DNA of 64,000 bases from Escherichia coli (GCF_003334815.1 NZ_QOWO01000016.1); one strand, 5' to 3'. Shown: positions 11,654 through 55,935, counted from the first letter of the stretch. Translations and numbers: made by a program. Notes: generated by a model not told the origin, from the sequence alone.

Positions 11654-12331
11654 ATGAAGTGGGACTGGATTTTCTTTGATGCCGATGAAACGCTGTTTAC
11701 CTTTGACTCATTCACCGGCCTGCAGCGGATGTTTCTTGATTACAGCGTCACCTTTACCGCTGAAGATTTTCAGGACTATCAGGCCGTTAACAAGCCACTG
11801 TGGGTGGATTATCAAAACGGCGCGATCACTTCATTACAGCTTCAGCACGGGCGGTTTGAGAGCTGGGCCGAACGGCTGAACGTCGAGCCGGGTAAACTCA
11901 ACGAAGCCTTTATTAATGCGATGGCGGAAATCTGTACGCCGCTGCCGGGAGCGGTTTCTCTGCTTAACGCCATTCGTGGCAACGCCAAAATCGGCATCAT
12001 CACCAACGGTTTTAGCGCCTTGCAACAGGTGCGTCTGGAACGCACGGGCCTGCGTGATTACTTCGATTTGCTGGTGATTTCCGAAGAAGTTGGCGTTGCT
12101 AAACCGAATAAGAAAATTTTCGATTATGCGCTGGAACAGGCGGGCAATCCTGACCGTTCACGCGTGCTGATGGTTGGCGACACTGCCGAGTCCGATATTC
12201 TCGGTGGCATCAACGCCGGGCTTGCGACCTGCTGGCTGAATGCGCACAATCGCGAGCAACCAGAAGGCATCGCGCCCACCTGGACCGTTTCTTCGTTGCA
12301 CGAACTGGAGCAGCTCCTGTGTAAACACTGA
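11654..12331 (+). CDS. yjjG: HAD-family pyrimidine 5'-nucleotidase YjjG
   Basis: 225 aa with the HAD motif I FFDADETL. Confidence 0.95.
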
Positions 12332-12421
12332 TTGCCTCCCCCCCGTTGATGGGTAAAATAGCCGCAATTTTTCGTTTTCAACAAGCGCGGCGCGATGCCG
12401 CTTACTCAAGAAGAAAGAATT

Positions 12422-12496
12422 ATGACGTTGTCTCCTTATTTGCAAGAGGTGGCGAAGCGCCGCACTTTTGCCATTATTTCTCACCCCAATAATTAA
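12422..12496 (+). pseudogene. prfC: Orphaned native 5' end of prfC (first 22 codons, then 2 phage-derived codons and a stop)
   Basis: Encodes [24 protein letters not shown], the K-12 RF3 N-terminus as I recall it. It diverges from prfC after ...tctcaccc at 12486. Confidence 0.9.
12473..12486. repeat. attL core
   Basis: attatttctcaccc, identical to 54397-54410. Confidence 0.8.
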
Positions 12497-12650
12497 GCCC
12501 AAATTAAAGCTCTTTTACTCTTTCAAAATCCTTTCAGTTAATTGAGGTTGAGCTATATAACTCATTTAAATACATTTGGTTATGTAGCTTCTTTAATTGA
12601 AAATTCTTTCATGTAACTTTAAATCGATCAGTTTGCTTTCATCAAAAATC

Positions 12651-12707
12651 TGTACATATGCTTGTACATAATGTACAAAACAGCAGAGGTGTTTTGCGAT
12701 TTGTACA
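12651..12707. promoter_or_regulatory. Cluster of four TGTACA motifs upstream of int (candidate integrase arm-type or regulatory sites)
   Basis: TGTACA at 12651, 12663, 12672 and 12702. The same hexamer is clustered at the other prophage end. Confidence 0.4.
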
Positions 12708-12716
12708 AGGTGAGTA

Positions 12717-13940
12717 ATGGCGCTGTCTGATGCGTGGTTGCGTTCAGTCGTTGGAAAGGAACGTGATAAGGTTTTGGTTAAATCCGATCGTGATGGTCTG
12801 TCTGTCAGAGTATCACCGAAAGGTCGCGTAGTGTTCCAATATCGTTATCAATGGGCAGGGAAAGGTGAGCGTCTTGATATCGGAACTTACCCGGCAACTG
12901 GATTAAAAGAGGCCAGAGAAGAAGTTATCCGTCTCCGTGGTGAACTTGAGTCAAACCGTAATCCACGATTGGTCAAGCAGGCTGAAAAACGAAAAGCTAC
13001 TGAAGCCATGACGGTAGAGTCTGTGATCCGTGCCTGGTATGAAGCATATTGTGTAAAAAATAAAAAAGGTTCTGAACAGATACTCCGCTCGTTTGAGCTG
13101 CACCTGTTCTCTAAAATCGGGAATATCCCTCACGATGCAGCTACATTGCATGATTGGTTAGAAGTCCTGGAGCCTCTTAGCACTAAGACTCCAGCAATAG
13201 CAGACCGATTGCTAATTAACGCAAAGCAGGCCCATGTCTGGGCGTATAAGAGAAAGCTCATTGAAACTCGCCCGCTGTCGGATATCACGGGTAAAGATAT
13301 GGATATCCGTAAAGGTCAGAAGAAACGGTTTCTGACACATGATGAAATTAAAATCCTTTATGCTGCGATCGATGGTTCTCGAATGGTTCCTAAATACCGG
13401 GCCTTCATTAAGCTATTGCTGCATTTTGGCTGCCGTAGTTCAGAGCTAATTACTGCCAGGGTGGACGATTTTGATTTCATTAATAAGGTATGGACTGTAC
13501 CACCAGAACGACATAAGACTGGAGAGATAACAGGCGAACCGCTAAAGAGGCCCATTATTGAACCGGTGGAGGAGCTTATAAAGAACGCTATCTCTATGAA
13601 CAATGGTTCCGATATGCTTTTTACTAAGGAAGGAAGCAGGGAACCCGTTGGTCGAACATCATTGCAGTCGCTGCCTTACAATTTAATGCAGTACGCATGG
13701 AGGCGTTTGGGGCATCAATTCCCTCATTGGTCTCTTCATGATTTGAGGCGAACAGCACGAACAAACTTTTCTGATCTTACTGCTCCTCATATTGCAGAAA
13801 TAATGCTCGGCCATAAACTGCCAGGGGTTTGGCAGGTTTATGACAAGAGCGATTATCTAGAAGAACAGCGTAAAGCATATCAGGCATGGTGGGAGAGAGT
13901 TGAATCGATCGTTACTTGTACTGGCCCAGAATCTACCTGA
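12717..13940 (+). CDS. int: Tyrosine integrase, P4-type
   Basis: 407 aa. The N-terminal arm-binding domain pattern is (DGLSVRVSPKGRVVFQYRY). Catalytic residues are R (GCRSSEL), H-x-x-R (HDLRRTART) and Y (VYDKSDY). Confidence 0.92.
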   Translation: MALSDAWLRSVVGKERDKVLVKSDRDGLSVRVSPKGRVVFQYRYQWAGKGERLDIGTYPATGLKEAREEVIRLRGELESNRNPRLVKQAEKRKATEAMTVESVIRAWYEAYCVKNKKGSEQILRSFELHLFSKIGNIPHDAATLHDWLEVLEPLSTKTPAIADRLLINAKQAHVWAYKRKLIETRPLSDITGKDMDIRKGQKKRFLTHDEIKILYAAIDGSRMVPKYRAFIKLLLHFGCRSSELITARVDDFDFINKVWTVPPERHKTGEITGEPLKRPIIEPVEELIKNAISMNNGSDMLFTKEGSREPVGRTSLQSLPYNLMQYAWRRLGHQFPHWSLHDLRRTARTNFSDLTAPHIAEIMLGHKLPGVWQVYDKSDYLEEQRKAYQAWWERVESIVTCTGPEST

Positions 13941-14190
13941 CAGCTTGCGTAGCCCTGACAGTCTGTTTTGAGCGAACAGTGGACATTTTCAATGGCATTC
14001 TTGAGTAGGTTACGCTTAGACCAGAAGTAAGAGGTGATAGAATTATCAACAATACATAAAACATAGGGGATCCTTATTGATTTATTGATCTTGACCAACT
14101 TATGTGATGCAGTATGTCTTTAACTTGTATTACTATTATCTTTATCTTGTTGTTTCTAATAAACTTATCTTATTTCAGAAAGGAGTTTTT

Positions 14191-15891
14191 ATGCATTTAG
14201 TCACGAAATCTTATTTCGATGCCTTTTGCAAAGCATTCGCTGCGCCCTATGAGGAGACCAAAAATTTTGAGGCGTTTGTGAACTATTGTGCTTTTTCAAA
14301 ATACTCAGGCGACAAAGTTGAGGTCAGTGATCTTGTGTATGAAGGCCCGGACCCTGGTATTGATGGCGCATTTTTATTTTTAGACGACAGAGCAATTTTT
14401 TCAACTGAAGAACTTCAGGAGATTTTCCAAAACTCACGTCGCGAGTTTCAAGTTTCATTAATATTCACGCAAGCTAAGTCATCGGAGAAGTGGAGCAAAC
14501 AGGAAATAGACTCTTACATTGCGTCAATAAGAGATTATCTTTCACCAGCGCCACAACAACCCCACAGTGAATATCTAGCGGACTTTAAAAAAATGTTCAA
14601 CTTGATATTTGCTAATATCGGCAGAGTCAAAAATGGCCTTCCAGACTTATACGCATATTTTTTTAGTGCTGCACAAAATACAGAGGCCAGAGAAATAAAA
14701 GCTGCATTTGCATCGGGTGAAAAAAGCTTAAAGTCACTCGGGTTTTCACATGAAACATCCTTCATTATGGCTCACAAAGACATGATTCATGAGCTTTGGC
14801 TTGCTGCGGAAGGTCCAATAGAAGCTAAACTTCCTACAATAGGCTATGCTCCATTCCCAGCGGCCCCTAATATTAATAATGCCTATGTAGCTACAGTCAA
14901 AGCTCGTAGTTTTATTGATTCTATACTTAAAGACAAAAATGGAAACCCTCGAAAAAAATTATTCGAAGAAAATGTTAGAGATTTTCTGGGAATTGATGGT
15001 GACGTAAATTCAGAAATTGCAGGAACACTAGATACTGATGGAAAAAAAGCAAGATTTGGTTTAATGAATAATGGAGTGACAATAGTTGCATCAAGCGTGA
15101 GGCCTGCAGGACAAGAAATTTTTATACGAGATTTTCAAATTGTTAATGGATGTCAAACGTCTAATGTTCTTATATCAAAAGACATTCAAGTAGATGAATC
15201 AGTTAGTTTAATGATTAAATTAATTGAAACCGATGAGCCAGCGATCCTTGATGACATTGTACGAGCTACGAATAGACAATCTAAAGTTGAAGATGCACAG
15301 TTCATTTCAACGCTAAAAAAATTAAGGGAATTAGAGCATTATTTTAATGCTAAAGGTGCTATTGAAGGAAATAAAATTTATTTTGAGAGAAGAAAGGGGC
15401 AGTATAGTTCAGAAAGTATAGCTCCAGTACGCATATTTGATATCAGAGAAGTTGCGCGAGCATATGCTGCTATTGTTATGATGAGACCAGATTATTCCAG
15501 TCGTTATCCAAATAGGTTAACTGGTGACTTACTTAATGAGGTTTTCTCTTCCGATGCCCTCGAGGATGATTATTATATATCTTGCTATTGCTTGTATAGG
15601 CTAAAGGCTCTTATCTCAAATAAGAGGTTTGATGGGAAGTATTCAAAATTACGCTGGCATATTCTAACTGCTGCGTCAAAATACTGTGGTAATAATTATA
15701 AGGTTTGGGGGTTCAAAAATAAAAATGAAGCTCTTCATAACTTATTCTCAATGAATGATGGGGAGTGGTTTGAAAAACTTGAGAGTTTAGTAAAAATAGC
15801 TATACCAGATCCGGATATTTCTCGAGACTTACTAAAGTCGCAGCCTTTAACATCAACGATTCTCAAAAGTGTTGATAGCGTACCTAAATAA
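14191..15891 (+). CDS. AIPR-family (abortive infection phage resistance) protein, putative
   Basis: 566 aa from the ATG preceded by aaaggag. The central ..NNGVTIVA..FQIVNGCQTS.. matches my memory of the AIPR family signature. It is very AT-rich relative to the flanks and is followed by the hairpin gggaagc-ttatt-gcttccc. Confidence 0.6.
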   Translation: MHLVTKSYFDAFCKAFAAPYEETKNFEAFVNYCAFSKYSGDKVEVSDLVYEGPDPGIDGAFLFLDDRAIFSTEELQEIFQNSRREFQVSLIFTQAKSSEKWSKQEIDSYIASIRDYLSPAPQQPHSEYLADFKKMFNLIFANIGRVKNGLPDLYAYFFSAAQNTEAREIKAAFASGEKSLKSLGFSHETSFIMAHKDMIHELWLAAEGPIEAKLPTIGYAPFPAAPNINNAYVATVKARSFIDSILKDKNGNPRKKLFEENVRDFLGIDGDVNSEIAGTLDTDGKKARFGLMNNGVTIVASSVRPAGQEIFIRDFQIVNGCQTSNVLISKDIQVDESVSLMIKLIETDEPAILDDIVRATNRQSKVEDAQFISTLKKLRELEHYFNAKGAIEGNKIYFERRKGQYSSESIAPVRIFDIREVARAYAAIVMMRPDYSSRYPNRLTGDLLNEVFSSDALEDDYYISCYCLYRLKALISNKRFDGKYSKLRWHILTAASKYCGNNYKVWGFKNKNEALHNLFSMNDGEWFEKLESLVKIAIPDPDISRDLLKSQPLTSTILKSVDSVPK

Positions 15892-50849: not shown

Positions 50850-51104
50850 ATGGGTAAGATTATTCGGTGGATGCTTTTTTTTGTCGGATTATTTTCCGTT
50901 GCATATTCAATATATAAATATCAACAATCTCCGCAGAGTTTATTTTACATAATCGGTGCTATAGGAACACTTTTATCTGCTACATGTGGTTTACTTGAGA
51001 TAAAAAGCAAGAAATCGAATGGCAGTATAACTGCTGGCGACAACTCAAATATCGTTGTCATTAATGGTTCAGAAAACACATCAAAAATAAAAAATAGAGG
51101 GTGA
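50850..51104 (+). CDS. Small 2-TM membrane protein with a hydrophilic GDNSN-motif tail (unknown function)
   Basis: 84 aa with SD gaggt and two hydrophobic helices. The tail is ...ITAGDNSNIVVINGSENTSKIKNRG. Very AT-rich. Confidence 0.6.
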   Translation: MGKIIRWMLFFVGLFSVAYSIYKYQQSPQSLFYIIGAIGTLLSATCGLLEIKSKKSNGSITAGDNSNIVVINGSENTSKIKNRG

Positions 51105-51106
51105 TT

Positions 51107-52042
51107 ATGTTTGATAAAGAGGTTAACTTAGGAGACAACTCAAACGTAGTAAAAACAGAAGGGAATAACAACACAACAATAATAAATAATTTTGATGAGA
51201 AGTTTATAGGTCACGTTGTAAGATCCATGCTTTATGAAAGTATGCCTTCCTTTCAAGAAGAAGCTAGAAAAAAGATAATTGCGTCAACTGATGAATACAT
51301 TAGAGAGCTAATATCTGAGTTAGTAATTCAAAAAACAGATGCAGATACATTAAACCAAAAACTATCAACGCCTGACGTTCAATACTCTCTTTTTGAATCA
51401 GCTAAATGTTTTGCAAAAAATCCAGAAAGAACAGCAAAATCAACTCTGTTAAATTTAGTTGTAAAAAAAATAAATGAATTGGATGGAGATCATGAAGAGC
51501 TTTCCTCTATCGATCTGGCAATAAACGTCGCTACAAAACTTAGCGTAAAGCAAATAAGGTATATATCTTTAATATACTATATTAAAGATATTGTAAAAAT
51601 ATCACAAGATAGTGCCGGCGCTTATTGCATAATAGATCCTTCAAAAGATACAACAGAAGAAGTTGACGATTTCTTTTTATTCCCAAATGATATAAAAAGG
51701 AACAAGCAGGATGTTTATGATCTTTATATCGATCTATATAACAATCAAATGGATGTTGTATTTAAAGATGAAGAGATTGGCCCAGTTGATTATAGTATGC
51801 TTATAGCATTGGGTTGTATCATTCAACCTGCATTCCCTCAGCGAACATTTGTACAAAATGTAAAGAAAAGAACAGGATTAGATTTAAACGACAGCGAACA
51901 AAAATTAAAGCTATCGACATTCATTGAGAAAATAGAAAAAGCTATAGAGATAGATTCTGTCGATTATATAGTATTAACTACGGTTGGTAGACAAATAGCT
52001 AACGCCTATATATCAACAAGAATGAGATTAGTTAACTTATAA
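51107..52042 (+). CDS. Uncharacterised 311-aa cytoplasmic protein, coupled to the 84-aa ORF
   Basis: ATG at 51107 (or GTG 51101, overlapping the upstream TGA). The N-terminus is ..VNLGDNSNVVKTEGNNNTTIINN. I see no catalytic motif I can recognise. Very AT-rich. Confidence 0.6.
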   Translation: MFDKEVNLGDNSNVVKTEGNNNTTIINNFDEKFIGHVVRSMLYESMPSFQEEARKKIIASTDEYIRELISELVIQKTDADTLNQKLSTPDVQYSLFESAKCFAKNPERTAKSTLLNLVVKKINELDGDHEELSSIDLAINVATKLSVKQIRYISLIYYIKDIVKISQDSAGAYCIIDPSKDTTEEVDDFFLFPNDIKRNKQDVYDLYIDLYNNQMDVVFKDEEIGPVDYSMLIALGCIIQPAFPQRTFVQNVKKRTGLDLNDSEQKLKLSTFIEKIEKAIEIDSVDYIVLTTVGRQIANAYISTRMRLVNL

Positions 52043-52063
52043 ATATCTCATATTTCTTCATCC

Positions 52064-52099
52064 AAGGTGGTGGCTTCATCATCCACCGCCTTCTTTTCT
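52064..52099 (+). terminator. Rho-independent terminator of the two-gene module
   Basis: aaggtggtgg-cttcatcat-ccaccgcctt followed by cttttct. Confidence 0.65.
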
Positions 52100-52103
52100 G
52101 CTC

Positions 52104-52265
52104 TTAAGAGTAGTGAACAAACCACTCGTCAGCAAACTCCCAAGTATCTTTCAGAGTCTCCTGAACAAAAGCCTTAGCAGAATCCTTATCTGCGGTGTAC
52201 GTAACAGGAAAATCATCGCTATGGTAGCTTTGACGCTCACCCCCATACCATAAAATATCAAGAGA
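52104..52265 (-). pseudogene. dinI-like remnant (C-terminal part only, no start codon)
   Basis: The minus frame reads ...[37 protein letters not shown]. About 100 nt are roughly 90 percent identical (hand count) to the 3' end of the intact copy at 53881-54129. Confidence 0.8.
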
Positions 52266-52445
52266 TTACGACTCATTTCCCCATGACTCTTCACCAACCA
52301 ACAGTTCTATCAACATAAGATGTAAACTCATAAACTAAGCAAGATAAAAAAATTAACAGAATTTTGTTGATTTCATGTCTGTGGAGTGTTAACTTAAAAT
52401 GAGACCTGAAGTACTGAAGGTCTTTGACACACTGGAGAAGCAACT

Positions 52446-52805
52446 ATGTTAACGCCGTTTGGTAAGACAGTAAGAAAAATGCGCATAGACTTGGGGCTTA
52501 CGCTTAAAAGCATGGCTGAGGCTATGGGCATGACCTCGTCTTATCTTTCAGCGATCGAAACTGGTAAAAGGGCGGTCACTAAGCCCGTGCTTGATAGCAT
52601 CATTAGCTATTTTAATGCGGATGAAAAACAAAAAGAAAAGCTTATCAGTGCAGCTCGTGACTCTCAGCAGTCAGTAGAGATCAGCTTGTCAGGTAAGAAT
52701 GGCCACGCTCGTGAAGTCGCAATTGCGTTCGCTCGTAGTTTTGATGAATTAAATGAAGAAGACTTCCGTAATTTACGACAGATTTTGAATCGAAAACAGC
52801 AGTAG
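52446..52805 (+). CDS. XRE-family HTH regulator
   Basis: 119 aa with FGKTVRKMRIDLGLTLKSMAEAMGMTSSYLSAIETGKR. The direct repeat ctgaag-ta-ctgaag lies at 52406-52419 upstream. Confidence 0.8.
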   Translation: MLTPFGKTVRKMRIDLGLTLKSMAEAMGMTSSYLSAIETGKRAVTKPVLDSIISYFNADEKQKEKLISAARDSQQSVEISLSGKNGHAREVAIAFARSFDELNEEDFRNLRQILNRKQQ

Positions 52806-52813
52806 GAGGCGGC

Positions 52814-53335
52814 TTGAGCGGACAAGATTATCGTGTACCTCCGCAGAATCGTGAATCAATACGTTCTATCGTCACATCTCTGCGGAGCGCATTTGGTATT
52901 ACTGGGCTTAAATTCCCTGTAATGGAGGTAATTGAGTTCGCATTGCCTCAGTTGATCCCGGATTTTGAGTTCCACATTGGTGGCATGAAAGAAATGGGAG
53001 AAACGCATGGTCTTACGTACCCACAGGAACATTTATTGATTCTGCGCGAAGACATTTACGAAGGCGCTTTGAATGGGGTAGGGCGAGATAGGATGACTGC
53101 CGCGCATGAATTGGGTCATCTTCTTATGCACAGGAACATCGCATTTGCTCGTTCTGCCCCAGGGGTAAAAATCCGCCCTTTTGAGAGTAGTGAATGGCAA
53201 GCTAAATGTTTTAGTGGTGAGTTATTAGTGCCGGCTATGCATGTCAGTATTTTAAAAGGTATGACGGCTGAGGATGTTGCTAAGGCATGCGGAGTTTCAT
53301 TAGTGGCAGCGCGTTATCAGCTAGACAGAATGTAA
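52814..53335 (+). CDS. ImmA/IrrE-family zinc metallopeptidase
   Basis: 173 aa with a TTG start, the HEXXH motif AAHELGHLLMH, and pairing with an upstream XRE gene. Confidence 0.75.
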   Translation: MSGQDYRVPPQNRESIRSIVTSLRSAFGITGLKFPVMEVIEFALPQLIPDFEFHIGGMKEMGETHGLTYPQEHLLILREDIYEGALNGVGRDRMTAAHELGHLLMHRNIAFARSAPGVKIRPFESSEWQAKCFSGELLVPAMHVSILKGMTAEDVAKACGVSLVAARYQLDRM

Positions 53336-53492: not shown

Positions 53493-53642
53493 ATGGGTTT
53501 GAAATCAATTGCTTCAAAAGCGGCGCCCAAAGGGTTCCGTTGGGTTTTCTGCCGTTACCGCAAGGTGCGTGGGAAATCAAAAAAAGTCCTTGATGCTCAT
53601 GATTACGGGTACGAGGCGTGGGCATTTTTAGTGCGCTGCTAA
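53493..53642 (+). CDS. Unannotated 49-aa basic ORF
   Basis: taaggagg SD, then MGLKSIASKAAPKGFRWVFCRYRKVRGKSKKVLDAHDYGYEAWAFLVRC*, followed by a strong terminator. It is below the ORF-track size cut-off. Confidence 0.5.
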   Translation: MGLKSIASKAAPKGFRWVFCRYRKVRGKSKKVLDAHDYGYEAWAFLVRC

Positions 53643-53655
53643 GGGTTAGTATTTA

Positions 53656-53680
53656 AGGCACCTGCGGGTGCCTTTTTTGT
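53656..53680 (+). terminator. Rho-independent terminator
   Basis: aaggcacc-tgcg-ggtgcctt followed by ttttg. Confidence 0.8.
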
Positions 53681-53773
53681 ATCCTCTGACCCGATTGGTG
53701 TCTTGCTGAGCCTGATAACTACCAATTTTTGTTATTACTATTCTACTATCGCTCAATCATGATTGGCGGGAGT

Positions 53774-53875
53774 TGAAACCGCAGGCACGTCGTATGCAAG
53801 AACGTGCTGCGGCTGGCTGGTGAACTTCCGATAGTGCGAGTATTGAATGATTTCCAGCCGTTACAGATTTTACGT
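53774..53875. repeat. Direct repeat copy 2 (~102 bp), abutting the dinI-like stop codon
   Basis: See 50489-50590. Confidence 0.85.
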
Positions 53876-53880
53876 GCTAA

Positions 53881-54129
53881 TTAGTGAACAAACCACTCGT
53901 CAGCAGACTCCCAGGTATCTTTCAGAGTTTCCTGAACAAAAGTTTTAGCTGAATCTTTATCGGCGGTGCGCGTAACAGAAAGGCCATCGTTGCTGGTGGC
54001 TTTTACGATCACCTCTACATCGTCATAACGCTTACTGATGCGTCGAGTTAATTCTTCCTTTAACGCATCCACAGCACCGTTTGGCATTTTAGTCATTTTC
54101 TCTTTAGCTATGCAGATCTCAATACGCAT
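53881..54129 (-). CDS. dinI: DinI-family SOS-inducible protein
   Basis: 82 aa, [11 protein letters not shown]...[23 protein letters not shown], with LexA boxes in its promoter. Confidence 0.85.
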
Positions 54130-54144
54130 AAAAATCCCTCTACA

Positions 54145-54188
54145 CTGTGTTTGTATACAGTGTTATTTTTAACTGTATAAATAAACAG
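54145..54188. promoter_or_regulatory. Two LexA (SOS) boxes in the dinI-like promoter
   Basis: CTGTGTTTGTATACAG (54145-54160) and CTGTATAAATAAACAG (54173-54188) both fit CTGT-N8-ACAG. The second fills the 17-nt spacer between the minus-strand TTGACA (54190-54195) and TAAAAA. Confidence 0.75.
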
Positions 54189-54213
54189 TGTCAATGGAAC
54201 AAAGATTGCTGCA

Positions 54214-54328
54214 TGTACAAATGTTCTTTGGCTACAAATACACCTACTGATCATGTTCTGCTATGCTCTGATACCTCCAAAATGTACAATCAGCGGCATG
54301 AATTTTTCTTTGTACATATGATTGTACA
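54214..54328. promoter_or_regulatory. Cluster of four TGTACA motifs in the attR arm
   Basis: TGTACA at 54214, 54283, 54311 and 54323, mirroring the cluster at 12651-12707. Confidence 0.4.
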
Positions 54329-54348
54329 TAATTAAAGAGACAACAATT

Positions 54349-55935
54349 ATGACAAGCCTTTTGGCCGCAGAGGTAGCGAAAAGAAGAACCTTTGCAATTA
54401 TTTCTCACCCGGACGCCGGTAAAACTACCATCACCGAGAAGGTGCTGCTGTTCGGACAGGCCATTCAGACCGCCGGTACAGTAAAAGGCCGTGGCTCTAA
54501 CCAGCACGCTAAGTCGGACTGGATGGAGATGGAAAAGCAGCGTGGGATCTCCATTACCACGTCTGTGATGCAGTTTCCGTATCACGACTGCCTGGTTAAC
54601 CTGCTCGACACCCCGGGGCACGAAGACTTCTCGGAAGATACCTATCGTACCCTGACGGCGGTGGACTGCTGCCTGATGGTTATCGACGCTGCAAAAGGTG
54701 TTGAAGATCGTACCCGCAAGCTGATGGAAGTTACCCGTCTGCGCGACACGCCGATCCTCACCTTTATGAACAAACTTGACCGTGATATCCGCGACCCGAT
54801 GGAGCTGCTCGATGAAGTTGAGAACGAGCTGAAAATCGGCTGTGCACCGATCACCTGGCCGATTGGCTGCGGCAAGCTGTTTAAAGGCGTTTACCACCTT
54901 TATAAAGATGAAACCTATCTCTATCAGAGCGGTAAAGGCCACACCATTCAGGAAGTCCGCATTGTTAAAGGGCTGAATAACCCGGATCTCGACGCTGCGG
55001 TTGGTGAAGATCTGGCGCAGCAGCTGCGTGATGAACTGGAGCTGGTGAAAGGCGCGTCTAACGAGTTCGACAAAGAATTGTTCCTTGCGGGCGAAATCAC
55101 TCCGGTATTCTTCGGTACTGCGCTGGGTAACTTCGGCGTTGATCATATGCTGGATGGCCTGGTGGAGTGGGCACCTGCGCCGATGCCGCGTCAGACTGAT
55201 ACCCGTACTGTAGAAGCGAGCGAAGACAAATTTACCGGCTTCGTATTTAAAATTCAGGCCAACATGGACCCGAAACACCGTGACCGCGTGGCGTTTATGC
55301 GCGTGGTATCCGGTAAATATGAAAAAGGCATGAAGCTGCGCCAGGTGCGCACTGCGAAAGATGTGGTGATCTCCGACGCGCTGACCTTTATGGCGGGCGA
55401 CCGTTCGCACGTTGAAGAAGCGTATCCGGGCGATATCCTCGGCCTGCATAACCACGGCACTATTCAGATCGGCGACACCTTTACCCAGGGTGAGATGATG
55501 AAGTTCACTGGTATTCCGAACTTCGCGCCGGAACTGTTCCGTCGTATCCGCCTGAAAGATCCGCTGAAGCAAAAACAGCTGCTCAAAGGGCTGGTACAGC
55601 TTTCCGAAGAGGGCGCGGTGCAGGTGTTCCGTCCGATCTCCAACAACGACCTGATCGTTGGTGCAGTTGGTGTGCTGCAGTTTGATGTGGTGGTATCGCG
55701 CCTGAAGAGCGAATACAACGTTGAAGCAGTGTATGAGTCAGTCAACGTTGCCACTGCCCGCTGGGTAGAATGTGCGGACGCGAAGAAATTCGAAGAGTTC
55801 AAGCGTAAGAACGAAAGCCAACTGGCGCTTGATGGCGGCGATAACCTCGCTTACATCGCTACCAGCATGGTAAACCTGCGCCTGGCGCAGGAACGTTATC
55901 CGGACGTTCAGTTCCACCAGACCCGCGAGCATTAA
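54349..55935 (+). CDS. prfC: Peptide chain release factor 3 (RF3) with a phage-derived N-terminus
   Basis: 528 aa from [27 protein letters not shown].... From [12 protein letters not shown] onward it matches RF3. Codons 1-9 differ from the native [10 protein letters not shown]. Confidence 0.95.
54397..54410. repeat. attR core
   Basis: attatttctcaccc. Confidence 0.8.

Follow-up and report, generated by a model that had tools for sequence, protein, structure and literature searches.

How does a host gene fare when an integrating phage takes over its 5' end? In Escherichia coli this question is raised by prfC, which encodes release factor RF3. Ogura et al. (2007), working on an Stx1 phage of O103, reported the same swap of the RF3 N terminus that we describe here, together with loss of the native prfC promoter and ribosome binding site (RBS); they left prfC expression as an open question and noted that the gene is nonessential (PMC2323221). 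One large survey lists prfC as "disrupted" by prophages (PMC3603311). We analyzed a window of 64,000 nucleotides of E. coli DNA (GCF_003334815.1, NZ_QOWO01000016.1), and in particular positions 54130 to 54420. A preliminary description of this region had proposed that the phage carries a mimic of the prfC 5' end that keeps RF3 intact, that all signals for prfC must come from the phage arm in front of it, and that RF3 expression may be influenced by LexA or by the binding of integrase or excisionase. The region is very probably the attR junction of an SfV-like temperate phage that uses the integration cassette of phage cdtI and of the prfC-site Stx1a/Stx2c phages, with the RF3 frame kept, TGTACA arm sites, a separate dinI gene, and a weak arm promoter for prfC. 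Such a feature is already known, both in kind and in this very cassette, and it is widespread.

Prophage junctions at prfC

The window holds E. coli chromosome in the gene order yjjG, prfC, osmY, split by a prophage of about 42 kb that lies between two copies of a 14-bp core, ATTATTTCTCACCC. The core occurs exactly twice in the 64 kb, at 12473 to 12486 (attL) and at 54397 to 54410 (attR), both on the plus strand; 0.03 copies are expected by chance, and none of 100 shuffled sequences contained two matches. The same 14-bp duplication is annotated in the GenBank records of 27 Stx1a/Stx2c phages. At attL, the native prfC open reading frame (ORF), with its ATG at 12422, enters phage DNA and terminates after two further codons (N-N-stop), leaving a displaced native 5' end at 12422 to 12496 on the plus strand. 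A consensus scan placed a candidate native prfC promoter (TTGCCT, 16-nt spacer, TAAAAT) at 12332 to 12359 on the plus strand. Its PWM score was 12.22, within the top 0.01% of window positions; the matrix was built from approximate classical frequencies, and its scores are uncalibrated and serve to rank sites only. This candidate is cut off from prfC and now faces the 5' fragment and int. At attR, the core supplies the codons I-I-S-H-P, with which the P-loop (G1) opens, and the match to the attP of free phages stops at 54410.

The identity with known phages was close. The free phages cdtI, 2H10, and Ayreon contain an identical segment from the ATG through the core, followed by phage DNA, and the match with the window ends exactly at 54410; the proposed mimic is thus present in the phages themselves. 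Over the att arm (54197 to 54410), identity was 98.6 to 99.5% with cdtI, 2H10, Ayreon, PhiR63_1, and 27 Stx phages, and the same att cassette was found in 36 phage records. The attP of cdtI reads ...ATGACAAGC...TTTGCA-attatttctcaccc-CAATAATTAA, and the cdtI genome segment ...AATTATGACAAGC...ACCTTTGCA-attatttctcaccc-CAATAATTAAGCCC... equals the attR arm of the window joined to its attL arm. [quoted passage not shown]

The chimeric prfC gene

The reading frame at attR begins with a phage-encoded surrogate prfC start, an ATG followed by 15 codons (54349 to 54396, plus strand), which was identified by translation and by comparison with the native start and the cdtI attP. This start is one codon shorter than its native counterpart, and the reconstituted chimeric prfC (54349 to 55935, plus strand; supported by ORF, alignment, and PGAP) encodes an RF3 of 528 amino acids versus 529 for the native protein. 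Translation and motif search agreed in this respect with the preliminary description, which had reported a phage-encoded 5' end, a deficit of one codon, and the 14-bp core. In the alignment with E. coli RF3 (PDB 2h5e), which begins at query residue 7 and chain residue 8, the only differences were A for Q at the first aligned position and a single S/A difference near residue 450; the mimic does keep RF3 in frame. The label "disrupted" is inaccurate for this cassette, since the gene is intact in these lysogens.

The ATG at 54349 is also the prfC start called by PGAP in another E. coli genome carrying the junction. An SD-like AAGAG (54335 to 54339) lies 9 nt 5' of it, and the start context AATTATGAC is common to the surrogate and the native prfC. 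An upstream in-frame TTG at 54322, which would give a protein of 537 amino acids, was considered as the start and rejected on account of the PGAP call, the SD-like sequence, and the alignment of ATG 54349 with the native start.

The last nine codons before the core (E-V-A-K-R-R-T-F-A) differ between phage and host at 8 of 27 nucleotides, and all eight differences are synonymous; among 200,000 random draws of eight substitutions, not one kept the peptide. R997, of the SXT/R391 group, retains K-R-R-T-F-A with five additional synonymous differences. Taken with the start context and the SD-like sequence, the all-synonymous divergence suggests a protein-level constraint on the phage-borne piece, from which translation of the chimera can be argued. 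This argument is supportive and not decisive, because the divergence may partly predate capture from another host's prfC. A stronger reading, in which the synonymous divergence would prove ongoing selection in the phage, was dropped to the rank of supporting evidence, as capture may postdate part of the divergence.

Integrase and putative arm-type sites

The int gene (12717 to 13940, plus strand) encodes a tyrosine integrase with an N-terminal Arm-DNA-bind_3 (DUF4102) domain. Its Pfam domains, PF13356 (E = 1.8e-16), PF22022, and PF00589 (E = 7.8e-18), place it in the IntSXT group as defined in PMC8138268. Identity was 98.5% with the Int of phage cdtI and 96.6 to 99% across cdtI and the prfC-site Stx phages (402 to 407 amino acids), compared with 46.9% for the Int of Gifsy-1 and 38 to 39% for that of R997 (SXT/R391). 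Smyshlyaev et al. (2021) grouped the integrases of cdtI and SXT into a single cluster sharing the prfC target (PMC8138268).

The phage arm proper at attR (54195 to 54348, plus strand) contains four TGTACA(W)A motifs (TGTACA at 54214, 54283, 54311, and 54323), the SD-like AAGAG, and promoter-like sites that are all weak. The int-side phage arm (12487 to 12716, plus strand) contains a strong promoter-like site (12548 to 12576) and likewise four TGTACA motifs, located just upstream of int at 12651, 12663, 12672, and 12702. Eight of the 15 TGTACA copies in the window thus fall inside 172 bp of arm sequence (binomial P of about 2e-17), and a 23-bp block with two TGTACA, TGTACATATGNTTGTACATAAT, is present in both arms (12650 to 12672 versus 54310 to 54332; 21 of 23 positions identical). 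The four attR motifs had already been placed correctly in the preliminary description. Because the motifs recur in the int-side arm and in R997, the TGTACA(W)A sequences are most likely arm-type sites of Int, a putative role suggested by their position, their repetition, and the parallel with R997.

The att arm is too uniform among the known phages (98.6 to 99.5%) for phylogenetic footprinting, and two IMG/VR scans with the integrase, one with a single sequence and one with an alignment, returned only E. coli relatives of 97 to 100% identity and no diverse attP. We examined 80 species-level loci with relatives of the integrase (43 to 98% identity) for truncated native target starts. Upstream of int, at a distance of 146 to 255 bp (nearly all at 217 to 256 bp), 35 of them had a native prfC start that was truncated and ran into a stop after a few codons, and these loci span Escherichia, Xenorhabdus, Serratia, Pseudomonas, and Acinetobacter to Burkholderiaceae MAGs. 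Another target, lepA, was represented by a truncated start (MKNIRNFSIIAHI...) in the same place upstream of int at 13 of the 80 loci. The breaks in prfC and lepA fall at homologous P-loop codons; in the literature, we found no paper noting this integrase clade at the homologous P-loop codons of these two paralogous GTPase genes.

Transcription of prfC in the lysogen

The absence of a convincing σ70 promoter for prfC, remarked on in the preliminary description, was reproduced by both of our scans. The tool promoter scan found no plus-strand promoter-like site in 53600 to 54500, and the best plus-strand PWM score in 54130 to 54348 was 7.9, at about the top 0.24% of the window, which is about chance for 220 AT-rich positions. 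By comparison, the dinI, native prfC, and int-proximal sites scored 12.2 to 12.4 (12.39 for the int-side site at 12548 to 12576). The weak plus-strand candidates were TTTTCT with a 17-nt spacer and CATAAT (54304 to 54332), TACACC with a 17-nt spacer and TATGCT (54239 to 54267), and TACAAT with a poor -35 (54285 to 54290). By PWM, the top-scoring promoter-like site of R997 and of the lepA-type arms lies 5' of the tandem arm repeats, and the equivalent zone here is at about 54230 to 54300. With SXT and the dusA islands as analogies, the most likely source of prfC mRNA would be a weak or noncanonical outward promoter in the arm, at about 54230 to 54340. An Rfam search at a permissive threshold over 53600 to 54500 gave no match inside 54130 to 54420 and two sub-threshold small RNA matches further upstream.

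The claim that the 219-bp arm must be the source of all prfC signals was borne out in part: the native promoter and RBS are left at attL and an arm origin is likely, but "must" is too strong a word, as some prfC mRNA may arise by read-through. A terminator-like hairpin (53655 to 53674) with a T-run closes the upstream plus-strand genes and is followed by the convergent dinI, and both are predicted to hinder read-through from upstream.

Of the other explanations, the one that fares best, although we consider it unlikely, is that the arm has no dedicated promoter and prfC is expressed by read-through or spurious AT-rich initiation only, in which case the lysogens would be RF3 hypomorphs, tolerated as RF3 is dispensable. 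Neither the tool scan nor the PWM gave a strong promoter in the arm, the nonessential nature of prfC and the question of its expression both go back to Ogura et al. (PMC2323221), and expression at a dusA island is below that from the native promoter (PMC8409611). This explanation does not sit well with the arrangement upstream, where the plus-strand genes stop at the terminator-like hairpin and meet the convergent dinI, nor with a surrogate that keeps an SD-like AAGAG, the native-like AATTATGAC, and an invariant KRRTFAII by synonymous change alone. In addition, SXT/R391 keeps the same design, with a promoter that PMC8409611 cites as reported there, and the junction persists in 12.6% of the complete E. 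coli genomes.

An influence of Int on prfC, as suggested in the preliminary description, is plausible. One form of it, which would be compatible with the weak arm promoter as an extra layer but which we regard as quite unlikely, is that Int, with Xis or integration host factor (IHF), binds the arm sites and gates prfC transcription, so that RF3 would track the recombination state. Two TGTACA sites lie 21 to 38 nt 5' of ATG 54349, a third overlaps the candidate -10 TACAAT, and in R997 and the lepA-type relatives tandem arm repeats separate the best promoter-like site from the surrogate ATG. However, Int levels are normally low in stable lysogens, and the placement of TGTACA may merely reflect the geometry of the recombination complex.

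If the broadest form of this idea were true, RF3 synthesis in about one-eighth of E. coli strains would be tied to phage-arm signals that double as Int arm sites, the RF3 level would be coupled to the Int and induction state of the prophage, and promoters would be swapped by recombination; we hold this to be distinctly doubtful. In that case, int would be reached from different promoters in the two states: in the excised phage from the outward arm promoter, by way of attP, and in the lysogen from the host prfC promoter left at attL. A recombination-dependent promoter swap to which the prfC/int case can be likened is that of Pcirc in ICEclc.

dinI and the LexA boxes

The gene next to the arm is dinI-like (53881 to 54129, minus strand), encodes 82 amino acids, and is directed away from prfC. 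Its product matches Pfam DinI (PF06183, E = 1.2e-19) and is named DinI in phage and E. coli records. The dinI promoter/operator (54145 to 54194, minus strand) consists of the -35 element TTGACA (54194 to 54189), an 18-nt spacer, and the -10 element AAAAAT (54170 to 54165); with a PWM score of 12.25, it was the best promoter in the attR region, and it was also found by the tool scan. Both LexA boxes of the preliminary description were recovered at the positions given there: one (54173 to 54188) fills the spacer of the dinI promoter, and the other (54145 to 54160) lies just downstream of the -10. These are the only two CTGT-N8-ACAG sites in the 64 kb, although their count by itself is not significant, with at least two sites in 11 of 100 shuffles. 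They are 28 bp apart, directly 5' of the DinI-family gene and 161 to 204 bp upstream of the prfC ATG.

The dinI segment is a module separate from the att arm. Positions 54130 to 54194 recur in O157:H7 genomes, where the same dinI region adjoins a different integrase beside dusA, and in some E. coli genomes the match to the junction does not begin until query position 51 (window 54180). The boxes are absent from related att arms; at that position, R997 has setR and the Edwardsiella relative has tail-fiber genes. Because the dinI region occurs beside other integrases and other neighbors take its place in R997 and the Edwardsiella relative, we regard dinI with its operators as a separable accessory module that is predicted to be SOS regulated, with LexA acting on the dinI promoter and not on prfC.

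Control of RF3 by LexA and the SOS response in lysogens is very unlikely, in the direct form no less than in general, whether it were exerted on a plus-strand promoter spanning the boxes or by way of coupling with dinI and its divergent promoter. The sole route for direct control would be a weak plus-strand site (TACACT, 17-nt spacer, TATTTT; 54141 to 54169; PWM score, 7.7) that overlaps box 1 and would leave a leader of about 170 nt into prfC, and both boxes are good CTGT-N8-ACAG sites. Against such control, the boxes are an exact fit to the promoter of dinI on the minus strand, with one in its spacer and the other over the start region; they lie far from the prfC ATG, and over 50 bp separate them from those plus-strand candidates that are better placed. 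The module is found beside other integrases and is absent from related prfC and lepA arms. On the plus strand, box 1 and the T-run that follows it score as a terminator-like hairpin, which would be an obstacle to a transcript begun upstream. An SOS link would have been the interesting part of the preliminary description, and the evidence speaks against it.

Discussion

In our reading, a tyrosine recombinase of the IntSXT group recombines two identical 14-bp sequences, one being the core of attP and the other the stretch of prfC that codes for I-I-S-H-P, where the GTPase P-loop begins. Just 5' of the core, the phage carries a diverged prfC start, made up of an SD-like AAGAG, an ATG, and the codons up to the core. 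On integration, prfC loses its initial 17 native codons and gains 16 from the phage, with RF3 remaining in frame and unaltered from residue 8 on, and with the native prfC start and promoter stranded at attL. The eight TGTACA motifs over both arms would be bound by Int as arm-type sites, and dinI with its LexA boxes is an independent accessory gene, the last phage gene before the arm. A weak outward promoter in the arm would start prfC in the lysogen, where RF3 would probably be made at useful levels.

The closest parallel outside phages is with the SXT/R391 ICEs, which enter the same prfC codons (I-I-S-H-P), as seen in R997, and provide a new N terminus ending in KRRTFAII. SXT supplies prfC with a new promoter according to Hochhut and Waldor (1999), as cited in PMC8409611 and PMC2791158. 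In R997, the surrogate start is followed by the core, with ATTATTTCCCACCC at the other end of the record, in the same layout as in the window; a tandem GTGTACAAA pair stands directly 5' of the surrogate ATG, and more pairs are found in the int-side arm. The two systems differ in that the SXT/R391 Int, although of the same IntSXT group, is only 38 to 39% identical (R997) to the phage Int, and in that the ICE places int at the opposite side of att, with xis separating it from the core and setR next to the surrogate start. SXT/R391 is also a conjugative element and the element here is a phage, with neither tra nor set genes among the prophage ORFs examined. Since membership of the SXT/R391 family is defined by an Int nearly identical to that of SXT (PMC2791158), an identity of 38 to 39% argues that the phage is not a member.

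The Gifsy-1-type phages at lepA have an Int that is 45 to 47% identical to ours, and their target, the paralogous GTPase gene lepA, is broken at P-loop codons homologous to those in prfC. Circular lepA-type relatives carry a surrogate lepA start (MKNIRNFSIIAHID) in attP, with a tandem arm-repeat pair 5' of it and often with dinI as a neighbor; their arm repeat is TGTCCA, compared with TGTACA here. When the lepA-type mimic was searched as DNA against E. coli, lepA was matched only weakly (E = 0.009), and the mimic is therefore identified by its peptide, which matches the start of lepA as annotated in E. coli.

A comparable solution is known from e14 and phage 21 at icd, where the phage brings a diverged duplicate of the displaced gene end and the host protein stays intact. 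There, the 3' end of the gene is replaced and the host signals for transcription and translation are untouched, unlike in the prfC case. The dusA elements (PMC4482086; IMEVchUSA3, PMC8409611) likewise enter the 5' end of a conserved gene and supply its N terminus, but they have an unrelated integrase family and target. For IMEVchUSA3 at dusA, the new promoter was shown by a lacZ fusion (PMC8409611), whereas an arm promoter for prfC is predicted here from weak sequence matches and by analogy.

The value of these findings lies mainly in annotation and bookkeeping, in that prfC should be recorded as intact in the lysogens. About 12.6% of complete E. coli genomes have an RF3 with a phage-made N terminus and without the native promoter. 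RF3 acts in termination and in translational quality control, and a strain-dependent RF3 level could affect read-through phenotypes in pathogenic E. coli, including those of STEC with Stx phages at this site.

Among prfC-integrating phages, the Stx1 phage of O103 (PMC2323221), cdtI (NC_009514), the Stx1a/Stx2c phages of CC119 (PMC10132054), 2H10, Ayreon, and PhiR63_1 share the core, the arm, Int, and the dinI neighbor with the prophage studied here. In contrast, cdtI and the described Stx phages are lambda-like and long-tailed, while the present prophage is SfV-like with a contractile tail, and the integration cassette alone is common to them. Because the backbone here is SfV-like and the described carriers are lambda-like, the integration module (dinI, attP, and int) must move between phage types. 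The backbone is closest to that of vB_EcoM-689R6 and matches phage genomes with capsid, terminase, and tail genes. Between the two cores, the prophage also carries an AbiU-like gene and a capH/capP-like pair.

Integrase relatives and their target genes

Relatives of the prophage integrase (window 12717-13940) were compared as a set of 80 species-level loci (L092-L171) together with L084-L086. Among the 80, a truncated prfC start adjoined the integrase in 35 cases and a truncated lepA start in 13. The integrase of Gifsy-1 falls in the lepA group. The cut point lay at homologous P-loop codons in both target genes, I-I-S-H-P in prfC and I-I-A-H-I in lepA, and we found no description in the literature of this paralogous target relationship among the integrase relatives. 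The remaining 32 of the 80 used sites other than prfC and lepA, and no tRNA was present near the integrase at these 32 loci. Some of them, from Acinetobacter, adjoined a sequence resembling the 3' terminus of alaS.

The dinI module was also found beside other integrases. In E. coli O157:H7 PV15-279 (L090) the same dinI and LexA-box stretch directly abuts another tyrosine integrase, which lies next to dusA. Like prfC, dusA has a 5' end targeted by integrative elements. Morganella pMM1680-3 (L083, 1310-2001) had the same dinI-attP-int layout, with an integrase 50% identical to that of the window, TGTGTACATA repeats and an additional CTGT-N8-ACAG box within the att region (1800-1815). A search for a mimic of prfC or lepA there found none.

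The surrogate prfC start

The N terminus of RF3 made by the phage (window 54349-54375) was closer to the native Pseudomonas RF3 starts (MT...) than to the E. coli start when compared with L098, L100-L102, and L104, and this resemblance hints that the phage captured its prfC 5' fragment in another host. The surrogate start also carries the rare arginine codons AGA AGA (window 54379-54384) where native prfC has CGC CGC, a change with a possible effect on mRNA structure or on the first steps of elongation.

Expression of int

The candidate native prfC promoter stranded by the insertion (TTGCCT, 16-nt spacer, TAAAAT; within window 12332-12717) is now directed toward int, and the path between them consists of a 24-codon remnant ORF followed by the phage arm. 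As no terminator-like site was found in window 12000-12800, int may be read in the lysogen by host transcription from this promoter. Another strong promoter-like site was located at 12548-12576. The ribosome-binding site of int lies immediately next to the last int-side TGTACA (window 12702-12707), an arrangement suggestive of autoregulation by Int. A 23-bp stretch, (Y)TGTACATATG(M)TTGTACATAAT, recurs in the two arms, at window 12650-12672 and 54310-54332, with identity at 21 of the 23 positions.

Accessory genes and other features

Sub-threshold Rfam matches to two enterobacterial sRNAs, STnc130 (window 53646-53758, minus strand; 30 bits versus a gathering score of 55) and CssrB (window 53775-53811), are probably chance or remnants. 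The product of the gene adjoining int (window 14104-15891) is an AIPR/AbiU-like abortive-infection protein (PADLOC AbiU, E = 4e-111). In phage cdtI this position is occupied by another gene. An HTH protein and M78 peptidase pair (window 52446-53335) resembles the capH/capP regulators of defense systems. Upstream of the pair, on the strand that encodes it, lie an 84-amino-acid hydrophobic ORF and a 313-amino-acid ORF with no Pfam or PADLOC match. The whole region (window 50850-53335) may be a regulated accessory or defense cassette.
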